NCBI GenBank assembly: GCA_036338595.1
Contig: JAYZBV010000033.1
Location: forward strand, 1 to 56,893
Length of the DNA stretch: 56,893 nt
Direction of reading: 5' to 3'
Origin: Planctomycetota bacterium
GTDB lineage: Bacteria > Planctomycetota > UBA8108 > UBA1146
A program made the position numbers. Shown one piece after another: positions 1-9,000 of this stretch (positions are counted from its first letter, which is position 1; each line of letters begins with the position of its first letter).

Positions 1-3000
1 CGCAGTCCTCGCACTCATCCGGAACGCCGTTGCCGTCACAGTCAGCCGAGGTGCCCGATGCGATATCAAAGGCATCATCGATGCCGTTGAGGTTGCAATC
101 GCAGAATCCCGGCTCGTTGCGGAAGATGCGGTCCTGCCACCCTTGCCAGTAGCCCACCACCAGGTCGAGGTCGTTGTCGGAGTCGATGTCTCCGAGGGCC
201 AGGGACGTGGTGTCCAGATTGCCACCGAGACTCTGTAAATTGTCGATGAAGGTGCCGTTGCCTCCGTTGAAGTAGACCAGATCCGGCTGCTGCCAGTTGC
301 CGACGACCAGGTCGAGATCGCTGTCGCCATCGAGATCGCCCAGTGCCAGTGCGGTGGTCGGCTCGTCACCGCCGATCTCCAGGATGGCACTGAAATTACC
401 GATGCCATCGTTCACGTAGGCGATGTTGGGAAAACCATTGTTGCCCTCCACCACATCGGGATCGCCATCGCCATCGATGTCGCCCACTACCAACTTCAGG
501 GATTCGTCGGGCCCCGAGCCGAAGGTCTGGCTGCTGGCGGTGAAGAGCCCATCACCGTCATTGAAGTAGACCTGGTTCGCCTCGAAGCGATTGACCACCA
601 CCAGGTCGAGATCGGTGTCGTTATCGACATCGATCAGCGCCATCGCCGCGCTCTCGCTGTTGCCCAGCTGCTGGCCGGGATCCTGGGTGAAGATGCCGCT
701 GCCGTCGTTTCGATAGACCAGATTCGGCTGCGACCCGTTGCCCTCGACGAAATCGAGATCTCCGTCGTCATCGATGTCGCCGACAGCGATCGATTCCGTC
801 TCCCACGTTCCGATCGCCTGGTTGGTATCGGTGAAGTTGCCGGTGAGGTCGTTGTCGTTGAGGAGGACACGGTTGGGCTGGCTGTTGAACTCGCCCATCA
901 CCAGGTCGAGGGCCCCGTCCATGTTAAAATCCGCCAGCACCAGGGCAGTGGTATCGCCGGTGCCCGGCGGACCGAGCGCCTGACCGCTGTCGGTGTAGAT
1001 GCCATTGCCATCGTTGAGATAGATGGAGTTGGGTTGACCGCTATTGCCCACCACCAGATCAAGATCACCATCCTGATCGACGTCACCGAGGGTGATCGTC
1101 CCGGTGTAGGAGAGCCCTGCAGTGCCGAGCAACTGACCGTCGTCATCCAGCCATCCGTTGCATTGCGCCAACAGCGCCTGCGGAACGATGAATACGGTGA
1201 GCAAGATCAGCAATCTCATCATGAAGACACCTCCTGGAACACTCTGTCGATTATCCATCTGGAGGAGGGGGTTTGGTAGTGGTGAGAGCGTTACAAAAGT
1301 AGGCTCCGGCGCGTTTGTACGCTCCGGAGCCTGCTTTTTAATGCTGCCGCGACCGTTACTCGTTACGGCAGGATCTCGGGGATGATTCTTTCGAGTCTTT
1401 CCTCGATGGCGGGCAGCGCATCCGCTTCGGTCAACTGAATCTGTCTTGCCGTGATCACCAGCGTGTTCTTGATGCGCACCTTGGTGCGTTCGGCGGCGTA
1501 GACCTGGTTGCGGCGGGTGCGGTTGCCCTCGGCGCCGGCGACGATGCCGGAGCCGCCGATGGCGGTGACGGAACCGGCGACGGAACCCTTCTTGGAGCGG
1601 TCATCGAGTTCGGTCTTGACGATGCCGCCGACCGCCTCGTCGATGCGCGTCTCGATGATCATCGTCCACGCCTCGCTGCGGCTCTTGCGGTCGATCATGT
1701 CGCCGACGGCGGATCCGATGAAGGCGCCGGCGATGGTGGCATTCTTACGGGTGCTGCGACTGTTGTTGCGCGCCTGGTTATTGCCGATGGCGCCGCCGGC
1801 GACGGTGCCGAGCAACTTGCCCATCGAGGAGGAATCGTCGGGCAGGTTCTCGTTACGGCCCCAGAACTTGATGACGGCGGTGATGTCGTAGAGCGCCTCG
1901 GCGGGGTCCTTGGTGACGGTCCAGCCTTCCTCCTCCATGCTGGCGACGAGCATGGCGCGCAGCTTGCGGGTGTTGAGATCGAGTCCGGAGGGGTTTCTGA
2001 CCTGGATGGTGACGCGGCGGTCGTCGCCGCCGGGGCGATCGCCGATGAACTCGGGCACGCCATCGACCCACTGCGCCTGGACATTCATCTCCTTGTAGCG
2101 CTCGCTACCGCCGGAGACGCTGACACAACTGACGGTGGAGAGGATCAGCAGGGAAACGAGAGAGAAACAGATCAACGATCGAAACATCGGGGACTCCTAG
2201 CTGCAGTATTCGGGCGGGCTCGATGGAAAACAGGCGTGACTCCGATGGGGAGCCACGCCTGATGATGTCTCATCGAAGCGGCACAGGCAAGGTGTGCCTG
2301 CCGTTGCGGCTAGTTGCGCGGCATCAGCGGACACGCCACCTGCGGACGCTTGCGGATGAAGACGAAGTCCTCGAGGGTCTGGTTCTTGTTGTGACAGACG
2401 AGGCAGGCGGTCTCCTTGACCGATGGCCACTGGTGGTTGACCGGATCGCGCGGGTGATCGGGGTTGAGACCGTGGCAGTTCTCGCACTGAACATTCTTGT
2501 ACGGTTCGGCATCTTCCGGCGCGATGAACGCCTGGCCGTAGCCGAGTACATGACAGGCGATGCAATCCTGGCGCCACTGATCGCCGGTCTCCACGAGACT
2601 GGCGAAGGCGGTCGCGTGCTTGGTCTTCTGCCAGAACTCGGTCTGCTCGACGTGACACACCGAGCAGGTGGTCGCGGTCAGGTACTTGTCCTTGTCGTGC
2701 AACGGCGGCAACTTCTCGATGTCGAGGAACTCGGCGTTGCGACGAAACGCCTCGACCATCTGGAGGATCTCGGGATCTTCCAGCAGGTGCGGCTCCATCG
2801 AGGCGCGCTCGTACCAGTAGGTCGATCGGCCGGCGGGGGGTGCCTCTTCGACCGACAGCGTCACCATCGGGCCACCGCCCTCGATCCAGTCGATGTCGAG
2901 GGTGCCGAGGCGTGCCCCCTGGCTATCGGTGCGCGCCAGCAACGTGTTGTTGATCGTCTCGAGGCTGTCCTCCTCATCGATCCAGATCTTGTGATTGCCC

Positions 3001-6000: not shown

Positions 6001-9000
6001 CCCCTTCGCTGATTCGGAGCGTTCCAGCTCCTTGCGTAACGCCGCACGTGCGCGGCGCATCAGGTAGTCCACCTGGTGGAAGGACATGCCAAGGCGATCC
6101 CCGATCTCGTCGTAGGAGCGCCCCTCGATGTACTTCCATTGCAGCGCCAGTCGCATCTCATCGGGAAGGCGTTGCACCAGTTCGTCGGTCTCGATCGAAC
6201 TCGATTCCTTCGAACGGTGCTGGGCCCGGGCCAGCAACTCGGTGCGCGCTTGTTGCAGCACGACCCGCTTGCGTTGTTTCTGCTGGATCCAGCGATGGGC
6301 CCTGTTCTGGACCAATCGTGAAAGCCAACCGATGAAGGCGCGTGGCTCCCTGAGCGAGGGCAAGGAGCGCCAGATGTGAAAGAGGGCATCCTGGGCGACA
6401 TCGTCCGCGTCCTCACGACCGACCTTGCGTCGGGCCAGACCCAGCACCAATCCTCCGAAGCGATCGATCAGGACGCCGAACGCGGCCTCATCGCCGCTGG
6501 CGGCGAGTTGCACGAGTTCGACATCTTCGAGATCCTCGGGAGCCATCGATGCTCGCTCCTTCGGCTGCTCGGGTCGGTCACCTGGAGGGGGGCACATGCG
6601 GGATCTCCGGGTCGGGAGGGGTGCAGTGAGAGGATCAGGAATCCTCTCTCGCGGACGGGGCGCCGGGCCCTGAAATCGGGCCAGGATCACCTTCCTGAGC
6701 AGTATAACATGAGCCGGGACCACCCCGGATCAGAGCCTCGCTGCTGACTGGAAGTACCGCAGTGCAGGGGCGATTCGGAAGCCATTTGCCTCAAATGGAG
6801 CGGATGGCTCGAAAGCCCTCCAGAGCCTGTTGAAGGCCAGTATCGTCGATTTGACGGTGGAACACGGCGCGCAGGCCGCGATCTCCGACCGCCAGCACCC
6901 GCACCCCCCGGGCATCGAGATCGGCCTCGAGTTGCTGATGACCGGCGACATCCAGATCGTCAAAACGGACGAACAGGATATTTGACTGTGGCGGGTTCGG
7001 TTCGAGGCGGGCACCCGGTAGATCGGCGAGCCCCTCGGCGAGTTGCTGACAGCGGCGGTGGTCATCGGCGAGTCGCTCGATGCCATCGGTGAGTGCGACC
7101 AGTCCCGCTGCGGCGATGACGCCGACCTGGCGCATGCCACCGCCGAGCAGTTTTCTCAAGCGCCTCGCCTCGGCGATGTGATCGGTGGAGCCACACAGCA
7201 GCGAACCGATGGGGCAGGAGAGTCCCTTCGAGAGACAGAAGGAGACGGTGTCGAAGGGAGCGGCCAGCTCGGCAGCGGCGATGCCGAGGGCGACCTCGGC
7301 GTGAAACAGTCTCGCACCATCGAGATGCATCTTGAAATCGTGCTCGGCGGCGACGGCGGCGATACCGGCGATCTGTTCGGTACCGATCACGCGCCCGCCA
7401 CACATGTTGTGGGTGTTCTCGAGACAGATCAGCGATGTGCGCGGCTGGTGGTCATCGTCGGGTCGGATGCTGCTACGGACCGATGCCGCATCGAGGCAAC
7501 CGTCGACCGATGGCAACGGATGCGGATGGACTCCCCACAGTCGTGCCGAACCGCCCGCCTCGTACAGGTAGATGTGGCTATCTTCCATCAGGATCATCTC
7601 GTCGCCAGGATTCGTCAGCGTGCCGATGGCGATGGTGTTGGCCATCGTGCCGGTCGGAACAAACAGCGCCGCTTCCTTGCCGAGGCGGGCAGCACTCTCC
7701 TGCTCGAGCCTGATGACGGTCGGATCGTCACCGAAAACGTCGTCGCCCAGCGGTGCAGCCACCATCTGGCGGTACATCTGCTCGGTCGGGTGGGTGACGG
7801 TGTCCGATCTGAGGTCGACCCGGTCCATGGTTCCTCCTGGTAGCGGTCAATGACGAGGCGATGACACCACGAAACGGCTCCGACAGGAAGTGTTCCCGGG
7901 ACTCACCTCGGCGTGGGGTTGTACCGGAGCCGTCGGCAGTGGACTCTTGGGGCGGGTACCAGGGGACCAGCCGGGAGGCGTGCGATGGAACTCGATGACA
8001 GGGTTTGCTACTGCTTTCGCGTGACCCGCAGGAAATTGCTCAACTTCACGCGCCAGACGCAGCCGAGCCGTCCTTCGCAACTGTCGGAGTGTTTCGGGGC
8101 AGGTACCGGCTGTGGCTGGTGTATCCCCTTCCTGATGAGAATCCACGCCGAGGTGATGGATTCGGATGAGCGCGCCGATGGTCCCGATCCGCTCGAGATC
8201 AGTGCCGAGGAGTACGAGCAACTGCGCGCCACCTACCGCGAGCAGGTCACTGCTGGCGAGCGCCAGAAGAATCACCACGGGGCTGGTTCTGGCGATCAGG
8301 AAACGGGGGGTGGCGATGCAGCGGGGGAGATCGATGACGATGCGTTTGCCTAGCGGTCGATCAATCCTCGGCGATGGCGCTCAACTTGCGGTCGATGGCA
8401 TCGATCTGGATGCGGAGCTCGACGATGCGCTTGGGATAGCGACTGAGGGTGGTGGTGCGATCGGTCTCGTCAGACCCCATGCCGATATTGAGTTTCTTTT
8501 CGAGCAGTTCCAGCTCGGTGACGAGGCCTTCTCGCTCTGATTCCAGGTCCGCGCGCTTTCGAGACAGTTCCTGGCGCTTCTGCTGCTTTTTCTTGCCGAA
8601 AAATCCGAAGATCAAGGAGTGCCTCCCTCTTCGAAGAAACTAACCATTTGTCTGCGATCTGGAAAGCCCCCACGCCATCTGCCGCAGGATGAGCTCCTCA
8701 GCGGGCTCTGCGCGCCTGGTCCGATCGGTTCAGTCTATCGACCAATCTGGCGAGGATCGACTGCAGGTGCTTGCCGGGACAGCCTGTATCTCGCAGATCC
8801 TTGTGGCCATAGATGCGCGAGGGGCGAATCTCGTGCACGGCAGCGAGTGTCCCCAGCAATGAGCCGAGACTCTCCACTTGCGACGAGGTGGGGCGATCTC
8901 GATCAAAATTGCCGATCAGTGCGATGCCGATATTGCCGCGATTGAGCGTGTTGTTGCCGGCGTGTGCGCCCTGGTACTGGATCGATCGGCCCTCCCAGAT

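Follow-up and report, generated by a model that had tools for sequence, protein, structure and literature searches.

A Sec/Cys tandem of tetrahaem UshA-like proteins behind an ECF sigma/anti-sigma pair in a Planctomycetota bacterium

The four-gene unit

The window analysed here is the whole 56,893-nucleotide stretch of a contig from a Planctomycetota bacterium. On its reverse strand, positions 2231-6546 hold a four-gene unit made up of an ECF sigma factor, a membrane anti-sigma factor, and two proteins of the NF041198 family that are periplasmic and carry four haems each. The features of the unit, in the order of transcription, are as follows:

5989..6546 (-): ECF-type sigma factor gene (Pfam Sigma70_r2, 2.6e-12; Sigma70_r4_2, 6.5e-10)
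5297..5992 (-): anti-sigma factor gene with an N-terminal zf-HC2 domain (Pfam, 1.9e-8)
3813..5318 (-): selenoprotein gene g00506+g00505, with a signal peptide, a degenerate 5'-nucleotidase-type N-domain carrying an E-P-C-G-U loop, and a tetrahaem C-domain
5109..5117 (-): codons of Cys68-Gly69-Sec70, the TGA at 5109-5111
5074..5090 (-): SECIS-like hairpin CUCGGCA-GUC-UGUCGAG, lying 21 nt downstream of the TGA
3903..4178 (-): the four CxxCH motifs for haem c binding in the Sec protein, residues 381-472
2310..3806 (-): Cys paralogue g00504, 498 aa, with D-V-C-G-C at 3606-3614 and the same build as the Sec protein
2391..2666 (-): the four CxxCH motifs for haem c binding in the Cys paralogue, residues 381, 415, 441, and 468
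2231..2261 (-): terminator-like hairpin with a 13-bp stem of which 9 pairs are G-C, followed by TTTTCC, 49 nt beyond the end of the Cys gene

The first-pass annotation had placed an ECF sigma/anti-sigma pair upstream of the tandem, and the sigma-70 and zf-HC2 domains found in the two genes agree with it. A conserved ATG (ATGTGCCC) lies upstream of the annotated sigma gene, which may start 17 codons farther upstream, at about 6597. The ATG of the anti-sigma gene overlaps the stop codon of the sigma gene, and the C-terminal part of its product carries a weak dockerin-like repeat (Dockerin_1, 3.4e-4, below cut-off). Searches of relatives with tblastn placed an ECF sigma gene upstream of the pair at 25 of 30 loci and an anti-sigma gene at 27 of 30, and both are also upstream in L045 and L050. 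At the other end, the terminator-like hairpin is probably where the unit stops; it comes from a consensus scan only, which returned three such sites in the region against 3.3 expected. Outside Planctomycetota, the gene neighbourhoods held no constant partner, and thiol-redox genes lay within about 3 kb in only six of the 33 loci examined, two of which are related Nitrospinales.

Read-through of the TGA and the SECIS-like hairpin

When TGA is read as U, positions 3813-5330 (-) translate into a single open frame with exactly one TGA, in the context ..VHNYGYIEPCG-U-PKRKIKLGSLSRR.., followed by the four CxxCH motifs. This bears out the earlier joining of g00506 and g00505 through ..GYIEPCG-U-PKRK... 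Under table 11, a 418-aa ORF runs from ATG 5069, and the public gene calls of most close homologues are truncated in the same way (411-420 aa, 82-83% coverage), as they would be if the TGA were a true stop and the two parts were separate genes or a pseudogene. We regard that as exceedingly improbable. The ~70 codons 5' of the TGA encode a signal peptide, strand 1, and the conserved GYIEPCG, while the 418-aa product would have no signal peptide, a requirement for c-type haem attachment. Among the loci read from 30 relatives, all 28 Sec orthologues have the TGA in the identical codon position, flanked on either side by conserved protein, each has one TGA and four CxxCH, and the codons before the TGA stay in frame with the rest at identities down to 38%. 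The TGA codon also aligns with a Cys in the paralogue and in homologues; in the A2 alignment, the three motif columns are C in 66, G in 66, and C or U in 67 of 68 sequences. Finally, the genome has a full Sec machinery, namely a tRNA-Sec, selB (390 bits), selA (526 bits), and selD (349 bits, with a TGA of its own). The assignment of the protein as a selenoprotein of the UshA-like family is supported. Its orthologues start with M-K/N-I-K-x-LLLL when the relatives' loci are compared, which makes GTG 5282 (489 aa) the likely start rather than ATG 5318.

The hairpin described earlier was located downstream of the TGA, and folding of 33-nt segments predicted it at the same place in 25 of the 28 Sec orthologues. 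Folds of 66 nt recovered it in two of the remaining three (L021 and L040), while L025 had it in neither the 33-nt nor the 66-nt folds. Across the Sec orthologues, 90.3% of cells pair, compared with at most 46% in slid registers, and one pair switches from C-G to G-C or G-U, on both sides, in seven sequences. The energy of the hairpin is unexceptional (z-score of 0.17 for 75 nt), 17% of other windows of the same genes on average fold equally well, and the corresponding stretch of the Cys paralogue forms an equally strong fold. No consensus stem came out of RNAalifold, and Rfam yielded no match.

A second copy of the Sec gene had been noted on contig C93. The copy is real, but at the DNA level it shares 96% identity with the locus in a different genus (G022) and just 83% with the present contig, so it was rejected as a paralogue of this genome and assigned to bin contamination.

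Family membership, haem sites, and the degenerate hydrolase domain

The NCBIfam model NF041198 (UshA_like_PCGU; length 519, cut-off 275 bits) matches the Sec protein with E 2.6e-69 and 234.2 bits, short of the cut-off, with a best stretch over model positions 14-269. These values, together with the weak SoxB (2.2e-6) and UshA (1.6e-5) matches, reproduce the earlier scores; the Cys paralogue reaches 314.3 bits, above the cut-off. This 'UshA-like (seleno)protein' family is the COG0737 UshA-like CxU selenoprotein of Zhang & Gladyshev 2008. Its members share with the proteins described here the UshA-like N-domain, the P-C-G-U/C loop, the C-terminal region of four CxxCH, and the existence of both Sec and Cys forms. 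The Planctomycetota proteins differ in forming a clade of their own, in their fixed Sec/Cys tandem behind ECF sigma/anti-sigma genes, in a Cys copy with V-C-G-C rather than P-C-G-C, and in the below-threshold score of the Sec protein.

The fusion to haems had been put forward as new, and whether catalogued members also hold haem sites had been left as a question. We found that model positions 345-518 and 393-511 align to the CxxCH regions, that 47 of 77 loci from many phyla have PCG[U/C] with four CxxCH behind it (in one locus, three), and that one protein named 'UshA-like (seleno)protein' by NCBI carries PF13435. The family was already catalogued together with its haems, and the novelty of the fusion does not stand. 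In the Sec protein, the CxxCH motifs are at 381, 415, 441, and 468 of the 501-aa form, which are the 298, 332, 358, and 385 given earlier for g00505, that is, for the 418-aa table 11 ORF. All four motifs, and with them H397 and H451, are conserved without exception in the 68 sequences. The haem region of the Sec protein matches Pfam Cytochrome_C554 (PF13435) at 1.5e-12 and 48.7 bits (cut-off 20.8), and PDB profile searches gave cytochrome c554 (1bvb) at E 1e-17 and NrfB-type tetrahaem modules at E 6e-7; here, the enzyme has two domains, and this c554/NrfB-type module is the C-terminal one. In other proteins (P0080, P0086), related haem modules are fused to AhpC-TSA/Redoxin domains.

For the N-domain, AF2 models of the Sec protein (pLDDT 88.4, pTM 0.84) and the Cys paralogue (pLDDT 81.4) were evaluated. 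The predicted fold matches 5'-nucleotidases with Z of about 31 and an rmsd of 2.6 A over about 280 residues, and SoxB with Z 28, as the UshA/SoxB-like label given earlier would have it; profile-profile comparison with true 5'-nucleotidases gave E 3.5e-50. With UshA and CD73 (PF00149 + PF02872), the proteins have in common this fold, the GG-x-ARR helix, the D-G-G strand, and the linker helix. Unlike them, they have lost the metal ligands of motifs I and V, have an altered motif III, and have no PF02872, the nucleotide-binding C-domain being replaced by the tetrahaem domain in both proteins, and they have gained four haems and the Cys/Sec loop, which is inserted directly behind former metal motif I. 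Neither PF00149 nor PF02872 matches the Sec or the Cys protein, while a true 5'-nucleotidase of the same genome (C94) matches both.

A check of the metal-binding residues, which the first pass had left undone, showed an incomplete canonical ligand set. In the 68-sequence alignment, the motif-I His column has no His in any sequence, and the motif-I Asp position is H, N, or D. The first motif-V His column is mainly N, Y, or F (His in 2/18 Sec and 3/8 distant rows), the second is mainly N, E, or Q (His in 3/18 Sec rows), and the motif-III Asn position is E in 17/18 Sec forms and variable in Cys forms. That the proteins have remained UshA/SoxB-type hydrolases dependent on a metal, with a haem domain that merely anchors or senses, would fit the fold, the weak UshA and SoxB model matches, and the persistence in the Sec clade of some acidic residues and His from the former site. 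We judge this very unlikely, given the lost His residues and the missing substrate-binding domain. The two proteins score only 26 and 74 bits against the SoxB model TIGR04486 (cut-off 550) and 24 and 53 against UshA (cut-off 600), and a Sec codon is costly and typical of redox sites. SoxB itself is periplasmic, tied to sulfur chemistry, and of the same superfamily fold, but it has a di-Mn site and no haem, and no sox genes were seen in the adjoining stretches scanned for ORFs. Action as nucleotidases is unlikely, in line with the earlier view.

Proposed redox role and the Sec/Cys tandem

With these His residues of the metal site no longer conserved and the C-domain exchanged for a haem domain, a redox role is the best reading of the C-G-U/C loop. 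Nearly all bacterial selenoproteins hold their Sec in a redox active site. Catalysis would take place at the Cys/Sec pair, which would act as the redox centre and cycle through a selenenylsulfide or disulfide, and the four haems would link this centre to periplasmic electron carriers. A centre wired in this way would make the enzymes oxidoreductases and not hydrolases; our best guess for the direction is the reduction of oxidised periplasmic sulfur, selenium, or peroxide species. The active site of UshA and CD73 lies in a cleft facing the C-domain, and only from this 5'-nucleotidase domain layout do we infer that the C-G-U loop may lie close to a haem. The ECF sigma factor would drive an envelope or oxidative stress regulon that includes both enzymes. 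Of the earlier interpretation, the selenoprotein and the doubt about nucleotidase activity hold, and the simplest account is a Cys/Sec redox site fed by haems; the novelty of the haem fusion and the C93 copy fall away. The sulfur, selenium, or metal chemistry suggested earlier is a conjecture.

The loop could instead be a set of ligands, either for a metal in a remodelled dimetal pocket or, through Cys/Sec, for the axial position of a catalytic haem. Around the old site, the Sec clade retains H60, D104 (17/18), E145 (17/18), H146 (15/18), and H242 (17/18), all possible metal ligands, so a metal site that includes Cys/Sec is conceivable, and SoxB is nearly as close in fold as the 5'-nucleotidases. 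Most of these candidates are lost in the Cys paralogue, with N60, N/S104, and a variable residue 145. For a haem ligand, the 68 sequences offer the four haems only two invariant His outside the motifs (H397 and H451), and the outcome would resemble TsdA and SoxAX, whose His/Cys haems act on thiosulfate and tetrathionate. Yet the missing distal ligands could come from H338/H340, present clade-wide, or H431, present in the Sec clade. We hold a ligand role for the loop to be improbable.

The neighbouring gene had been described as a Cys-Gly-Cys paralogue of the same build, which its motif stretch (..GYIDVCGCKRKK..) and four CxxCH confirm. It starts 6 nt past the Sec stop codon, and its protein is 32% identical to the Sec protein (160/498, E 6e-94). 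In a tree of 106 rows, the Planctomycetota proteins form a clade with support of 100 and a branch length of 0.88, within which a Sec clade (35 rows, support 84) stands apart from a Cys clade (36 rows, support 95), and several genome families have rows in both. As read from this tree, the two clades go back to a single old duplication basal to this Planctomycetota group. Ever since, the Sec copy has remained Sec and the Cys copy Cys, the two always adjacent. Where upstream sequence was available, ECF sigma/anti-sigma genes come ahead of these pairs. Such long-kept adjacency and fixed identity suggest that the enzymes act jointly or on different substrates and are not simple substitutes.

Sec/Cys isoenzyme pairs are known elsewhere, for example the Sec and Cys hydrogenases of methanogens, and two genes of one build side by side might likewise comprise a Sec enzyme and its selenium-independent back-up. 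We doubt this. The proteins are just 32% identical, the split between the clades predates the divergence of the genome families in this class, and the invariant surroundings of the motif differ (EPCGU-PK versus DVCGC-K(R/H)K). Since the two genes share a transcription unit and are separated by 6 nt, selenium is also unlikely to regulate them separately. Haem-linked Cys/Sec periplasmic oxidoreductases that arose from one ancient duplication are, on the whole, the best explanation of the two enzymes, and we consider it somewhat probable. A conserved pairing of Sec and Cys genes was not found in print and is a new observation; the side-by-side pair noted earlier now extends to a module with the ECF pair, conserved across a Planctomycetota class.

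Conservation of the selenocysteine gene and its tandem paralogue

The unit under study consists of four genes, in the order sigma factor, anti-sigma factor, Sec gene and Cys gene. The first-pass annotation's description of the Sec gene, the Cys paralogue and their haem sites proved to be real, and the elements considered first are these:

3813-5318, minus strand: Sec gene, 501-aa form with start ATG 5318
5109-5111, minus strand: in-frame TGA of the Sec gene
5074-5090, minus strand: SECIS-like hairpin
2310-3806, minus strand: Cys gene, 498 aa

With the TGA read as Sec, 3813-5330 (minus strand) is a single open frame with that one TGA, in the context ..LLTTVHNYGYIEPCG-U-PKRKIKLGSLSRR.. 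(motif E-P-C-G-U), and the 501-aa form carries CxxCH at residues 381, 415, 441 and 468. Reading the TGA as Sec, as the first-pass annotation had done, is upheld by its alignment with Cys in homologues and by coding sequence kept on both sides in 28/28 orthologues. A genome search found the protein in 56 of 61 related genomes, covering 24 of 28 genera. The Sec form was present in 28 of the 30 loci kept, and all 28 show G-Y/F-I/V-E-P-C-G-TGA-P-K, one TGA and four CxxCH; the other two (L041, L043) have the Cys form only, at a contig end or without a Sec gene. In relatives listed with "2 TGA", the idea of a further Sec was rejected, the second TGA being the stop codon. Since TGA also serves as an ordinary stop codon in relatives, there is no change of genetic code. 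The genome encodes tRNA-Sec, selB (390 bits), selA (526 bits) and selD (349 bits, with its own TGA). On another of its contigs (C72:32141-34795), tRNA-Sec, selD with the in-frame TGA, and selA are clustered, while selB lies apart, on C108. The N-termini of Sec orthologues read M-K/N-I-K-x-LLLL.. and line up here with GTG 5282, so that, judged from the sequence, the true product is probably 489 aa long with a classical signal peptide. From that start, the Sec gene would begin 14 nt past the anti-sigma stop codon, with no overlap.

The hairpin proposed as a SECIS element is present, but it is not decisive: its energy is ordinary (MFE z-score 0.17), the Cys paralogue folds equally strongly at the matching place, and an Rfam search of the region returned no matching family, only a chance match. 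A stem was predicted at the site in 25/28 orthologues from 33-nt segments, and 66-nt folds added L021 and L040 (27/28 over both fold sets); L025 folds differently in both sets despite an identical stem sequence. The stem occurs in two registers, which is why RNAalifold gave no consensus stem for it. In the originally proposed register, 90.3% of cells pair, compared with at most 46% when the partner is slid. One stem pair shows compensatory change, with both positions altered in 7 sequences (C-G replaced by G-C or G-U), and the observed covariation score was reached by 0/500 shuffles. Other windows of the same genes folded as well in 17% of cases on average. The case for Sec therefore rests on conservation, the alignment with Cys and the machinery; the hairpin counts only as compatible with it. 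The Cys paralogue (3560-3592, minus strand) and its 24 orthologues fold into a hairpin of their own some 16-48 nt past the TGC; its spacing from the Cys codon equals that between the Sec codon and the SECIS-like hairpin (mean MFE -10.6 kcal/mol, against -9.7 kcal/mol in the Sec genes). It may be a SECIS relic or a by-product of the conserved G-S-x-T-R-R codons.

The Cys gene starts six bases past the TAA stop of the Sec gene, and its product shares 32% identity with the Sec protein (160/498, E 6e-94). Opposite C-G-U it has ..GYIDVCGCKRKKVRQGSITRR.., with the motif D-V-C-G-C, i.e. C-G-C without Pro, and its four CxxCH have the residue numbers of those in the Sec protein. Being expressible without Sec machinery, the paralogue offers a natural experimental handle. 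A 13-bp terminator-like hairpin lies 49 nt past the gene (consensus scan only). The ECF sigma/anti-sigma pair reported upstream was confirmed with Pfam, as a protein with Sigma70_r2 and r4_2 only, followed by a zf-HC2 protein that also has a weak dockerin-like repeat and whose ATG overlaps the sigma stop codon. When relatives' loci were searched by tblastn with the window's proteins, the sigma factor was found upstream of the pair in 25/30 and the anti-sigma factor in 27/30; both were also confirmed by Pfam in the distant loci L045 and L050. Of the 56 matching genomes, 51 have at least two matched places, and among the rows listed the stop-free form directly follows the Sec form. A conserved upstream ATG (ATGTGCCC) suggests that the sigma gene would start 17 codons before 6546. 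Also conserved between genera is a block upstream of the sigma gene, at about 6640-6700 (minus strand), which reads ..TCCGGG..TCCCGG..CATGTTATACTGCTCAGGAAGGTG.. and includes a TATACT box. Dockerin/EF-hand-like D-x-D-x-D-G repeats (Dockerin_1 E 3.4e-4, below its cut-off) are present in the extracytoplasmic portion of the anti-sigma factor (5297-5760, minus strand); they also occur in the distant orthologues L121 and L122, and an FG-GAP protein at 2-1258 has similar ones.

To place the duplication, 110 sequences were extracted and, after four identical ones were dropped, 106 rows were used for a tree (quick mode, SH-aLRT support). All Planctomycetota rows fell into one clade (support 100, stem length 0.88), split into a Sec clade of 35 rows (support 84) and a Cys clade of 36 rows (support 95). 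Genome families f1, f2, f3 and f6 are represented in both, which points to one duplication predating the separation of these lineages, after which neither copy changed between Sec and Cys. In other phyla mostly one copy, usually Sec, is present, and the Sec/Cys label changes at least five times in the tree as a whole; given long outgroup branches that drew a tool warning, the deep branching order is unsure outside Planctomycetota. The second Sec copy reported on contig C93 (C93:2518-3532) was rejected as part of this genome. Its DNA shares 96% identity with the locus of G022, a genome of another genus, and only 83% with the window, which identifies it as contamination of the bin (stated contamination 7.2%).

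Family membership and the haem domain

Profile searches reproduced the earlier database scores for the Sec protein. Against the 275-bit cut-off of the NCBIfam model NF041198, the Sec protein scored 234.2 bits (below) and the Cys paralogue 314.3 bits (above). The P-C-G-U/P-C-G-C feature of this model is present in the Sec protein as E-P-C-G-U, after the first strand of the UshA-like domain. In a search of the genome, the 519-position model matched each protein in two stretches: positions 15-269 and 345-518 for the Cys gene, the latter on 2358-2834 (110.6 bits), and positions 14-269 and 393-511 for the Sec gene, the latter on 3894-4241 (105.6 bits). The second stretch is the CxxCH region in both. 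Whether catalogued members carry haem sites, a point left open by the first-pass annotation, is thus answered, as the C-terminal stretch of the model corresponds to the four-CxxCH region and the curated family therefore already includes the haem domain.

The haem fusion had been presented as new, and this part of the claim fell: it is a property of the known family, seen in the NF041198 haem stretch, in a Thiovibrio protein (P0043) that NCBI names "UshA-like (seleno)protein" and that carries PF13435, and across loci of many phyla. A strict build pattern (G-x3-4-C-x-[CU]..G-[SGA]-x2-3-R, then at least three CxxCH) was applied to 77 loci and matched 47, with four CxxCH in 46 of these and three in L104. 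The 35 matching loci outside Planctomycetota comprise 27 with Sec and 8 with Cys only; the 30 loci without a match are mostly from Polyangia. The phyla and groups represented include Planctomycetota, Myxococcota, Latescibacterota, Krumholzibacteriota, Eisenbacteria, Fibrobacterota, Nitrospinota, Acidobacteriota and Rokubacteria. Counted as 50% identity clusters, the family has 200 representatives at E <= 1e-30 and 3802 at E <= 1e-10, many of which begin right after the Sec position, a sign of truncated gene calls. In public protein sets, most Sec forms are deposited as 411-420 aa, starting past the TGA, and so their records contain neither the signal peptide nor the C-G-U loop. They are often named "multiheme c-type cytochrome", as are close homologues in GenBank. 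The analysis thereby exposes the truncation at the TGA of most Sec forms in public gene calls.

The cytochrome c554-like family PF13435 scored 48.7 and 45.4 bits, above its gathering threshold of 20.8. The four CxxCH, W392, H397, E442 and H451 are invariant in 68/68 aligned sequences; H338/H340 vary little or not at all inside each Planctomycetota clade, and the same holds for H431 inside the Sec clade. PDB profile matches of the haem domain were to cytochrome c554 (1e-17), NrfB and other multihaem proteins. In other proteins (P0080 and P0086), related haem modules are fused to AhpC-TSA, Redoxin or thioredoxin domains, which hints at a module that works for thiol-based catalytic domains. PDB 6i5b was set aside as a relative: only the haem modules match it, and the papers listed as citing the code concern the nonahaem OcwA.

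Fold and the former hydrolase site

AlphaFold2 models were built for the Sec protein (pLDDT 88.4, pTM 0.84) and the Cys protein (pLDDT 81.4, pTM 0.79), which have the same predicted secondary structure. The 68-row alignment behind the Sec model comprised 18 of the 28 Sec orthologues (near-identical ones omitted), 42 Planctomycetota-type Cys sequences and 8 distant members. The stretch of the model from residue 49 to about 360 superposes on 5'-nucleotidases (2z1a, Z 31.2, rmsd 2.6 Å over 280 residues), with SoxB also a structural match to this N-domain (Z 28). A profile-profile alignment with 11 true 5'-nucleotidases gave probability 100 and E 3.5e-50 over 289 columns. The metal-binding residues, which the first-pass annotation had not gone into, could be compared column by column.

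Table. Metal-site motifs of 5'-nucleotidases and their counterparts in the alignment
Motif; canonical; here; conservation
I; D-x-H-G; [H/N/D]60-N61-x62-G63; His column without His in 68/68
II; D-x-G-D; D101-G-G-D104; position 104 is D in 17/18 Sec, N or S in 37/42 Cys
III; G-N-H-E; G144-E145-H146-D147; Asn column E in 17/18 Sec, variable in Cys; catalytic His column H in 15/18 Sec, mostly F/Y/H in Cys, R in 6/8 distant
IV; H; H242; kept in 17/18 Sec and 25/42 Cys
V; G-H-x-H; P264-N265-S266-S267; no conserved His at 265 or 267 (scattered His at 265 in 2/18 Sec and 3/8 distant rows, at 267 in 3/18 Sec rows)

Across the 68 sequences the ligand set is incomplete at motifs I, III and V, so the UshA-like proteins here lack the complete dimetal set (D-x-H, G-D, G-N-H, H, G-H-x-H). 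This, together with the absence of a PF02872 domain, makes it unlikely that the proteins are nucleotidases, in line with the earlier statement. Pfam searches at E <= 0.01 found neither PF00149 nor PF02872 in the Sec and Cys proteins, and the SoxB model TIGR04486 gave them 26.2 and 74.1 bits, respectively, against a cut-off of 550. The control, a true 5'-nucleotidase encoded on contig C94 of this genome, retains intact DMHG, GD, GNHD and GGHSH motifs and matches both Pfam families, PF02872 at 3.1e-29. It had been a candidate third family member and was rejected as a true 5'-nucleotidase fused to a nucleoside transporter. At this place (C94:2229-5126, minus strand; locus L125), one frame of 930-960 aa holds the nucleotidase (Metallophos and 5_nucleotid_C, metal motifs intact) and a Na+-dependent nucleoside transporter (Nucleos_tra2_N, Gate and Nucleos_tra2_C), a fusion that would couple nucleotide hydrolysis to nucleoside uptake.

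Inserted between motif I and the G-[SG]-L-x-R-R helix, the C-G-U loop therefore lies at the entrance to the former metal site. That site faces the C-domain in UshA and CD73, and the C-domain of the proteins here is the haem domain. A signal peptide and c-type haem sites give the proteins a periplasmic address, the C-G-U/C loop is nearly invariant, and the Sec codon is kept across phyla. We infer that the loop acts as a redox centre which the haems would supply or drain, and a redox reading of the Sec and Cys proteins seems reasonable as a hypothesis. Less probably, Cys and Sec may instead serve as ligands, either in a metal site or to a haem, rather than as a free redox pair. The enzymes may be stress-related, as their genes lie behind an ECF sigma factor.

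Gene neighbourhoods, candidate role and literature

Neighbourhoods were scanned in two rounds (14 and 21 of the 77 loci), and 33 of the scanned loci belong to genomes outside Planctomycetota. These 33 showed no common theme when a constant functional partner was sought. Thiol-redox genes lie within about 3 kb in 6/33: AhpC-TSA directly upstream in L058, a TlpA-like gene and DsbD in L111, rhodanese and MauE/DoxX in L107, Thioredoxin_4 in L063, and DSBA in L109 and L087, two loci related to each other. Other multihaem cytochromes are near 3/33 (L056, L057, L096), and the remaining loci have nothing telling nearby. The neighbourhoods outside Planctomycetota thus weakly favour thiol, peroxide or sulfur chemistry.

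Taken jointly, one speculative picture, which we consider rather unlikely to hold in full, is an uncharacterised periplasmic class in which a dead 5'-nucleotidase scaffold carries a Cys-Gly-Sec redox centre wired by four haems to the respiratory chain. Its activity might be that of a cytochrome-driven selenoperoxidase or a disulfide/polysulfide reductase. The Sec and Cys copies of Planctomycetia, products of an ancient duplication, would then depend on each other as an obligate system of two enzymes, possibly heteromeric, which the dedicated ECF sigma factor would switch on in envelope or oxidative stress.

Zhang and Gladyshev (2008, PMC2398784) listed "COG0737, UshA-like" with motif CxU and the figures 76, 20 and 92. 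In the portions of that paper available, it is counted among the major marine selenoprotein families and is grouped with SelD and FdhA rather than with those that have Cys-based redox motifs. The accessible parts of a 2022 review (PMC9312934) and a 2026 review (PMC13188914) each give it a single accession number, the latter citing NF041198. In the material available from these sources, the family appears in table rows only, and it is still catalogued without a function. A full-text literature search, with subscription journals and the NCBIfam description text outside its reach, returned no paper that treats the haem domain, the function or the pairing of the two genes. As far as this search reaches, three things are new: the Sec/Cys tandem of Planctomycetota, fixed since ancient times and placed under ECF control, the decay of the hydrolase site as documented here, and the divergence of the clade, with its Sec form below the family cut-off. 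The tandem is kept by a whole class of Planctomycetota, and together with its own ECF sigma factor, the degenerate hydrolase site and the integral haem domain it yields a testable enzyme hypothesis.

A further arrangement was observed in Krumholzibacteriota and Fibrobacterota (L060, L061, L075, L079, L082, L091, L093, L119), where the single Sec gene always precedes an ORF of about 277 aa that matches no Pfam family, and the next gene encodes an RNase T-type exonuclease.
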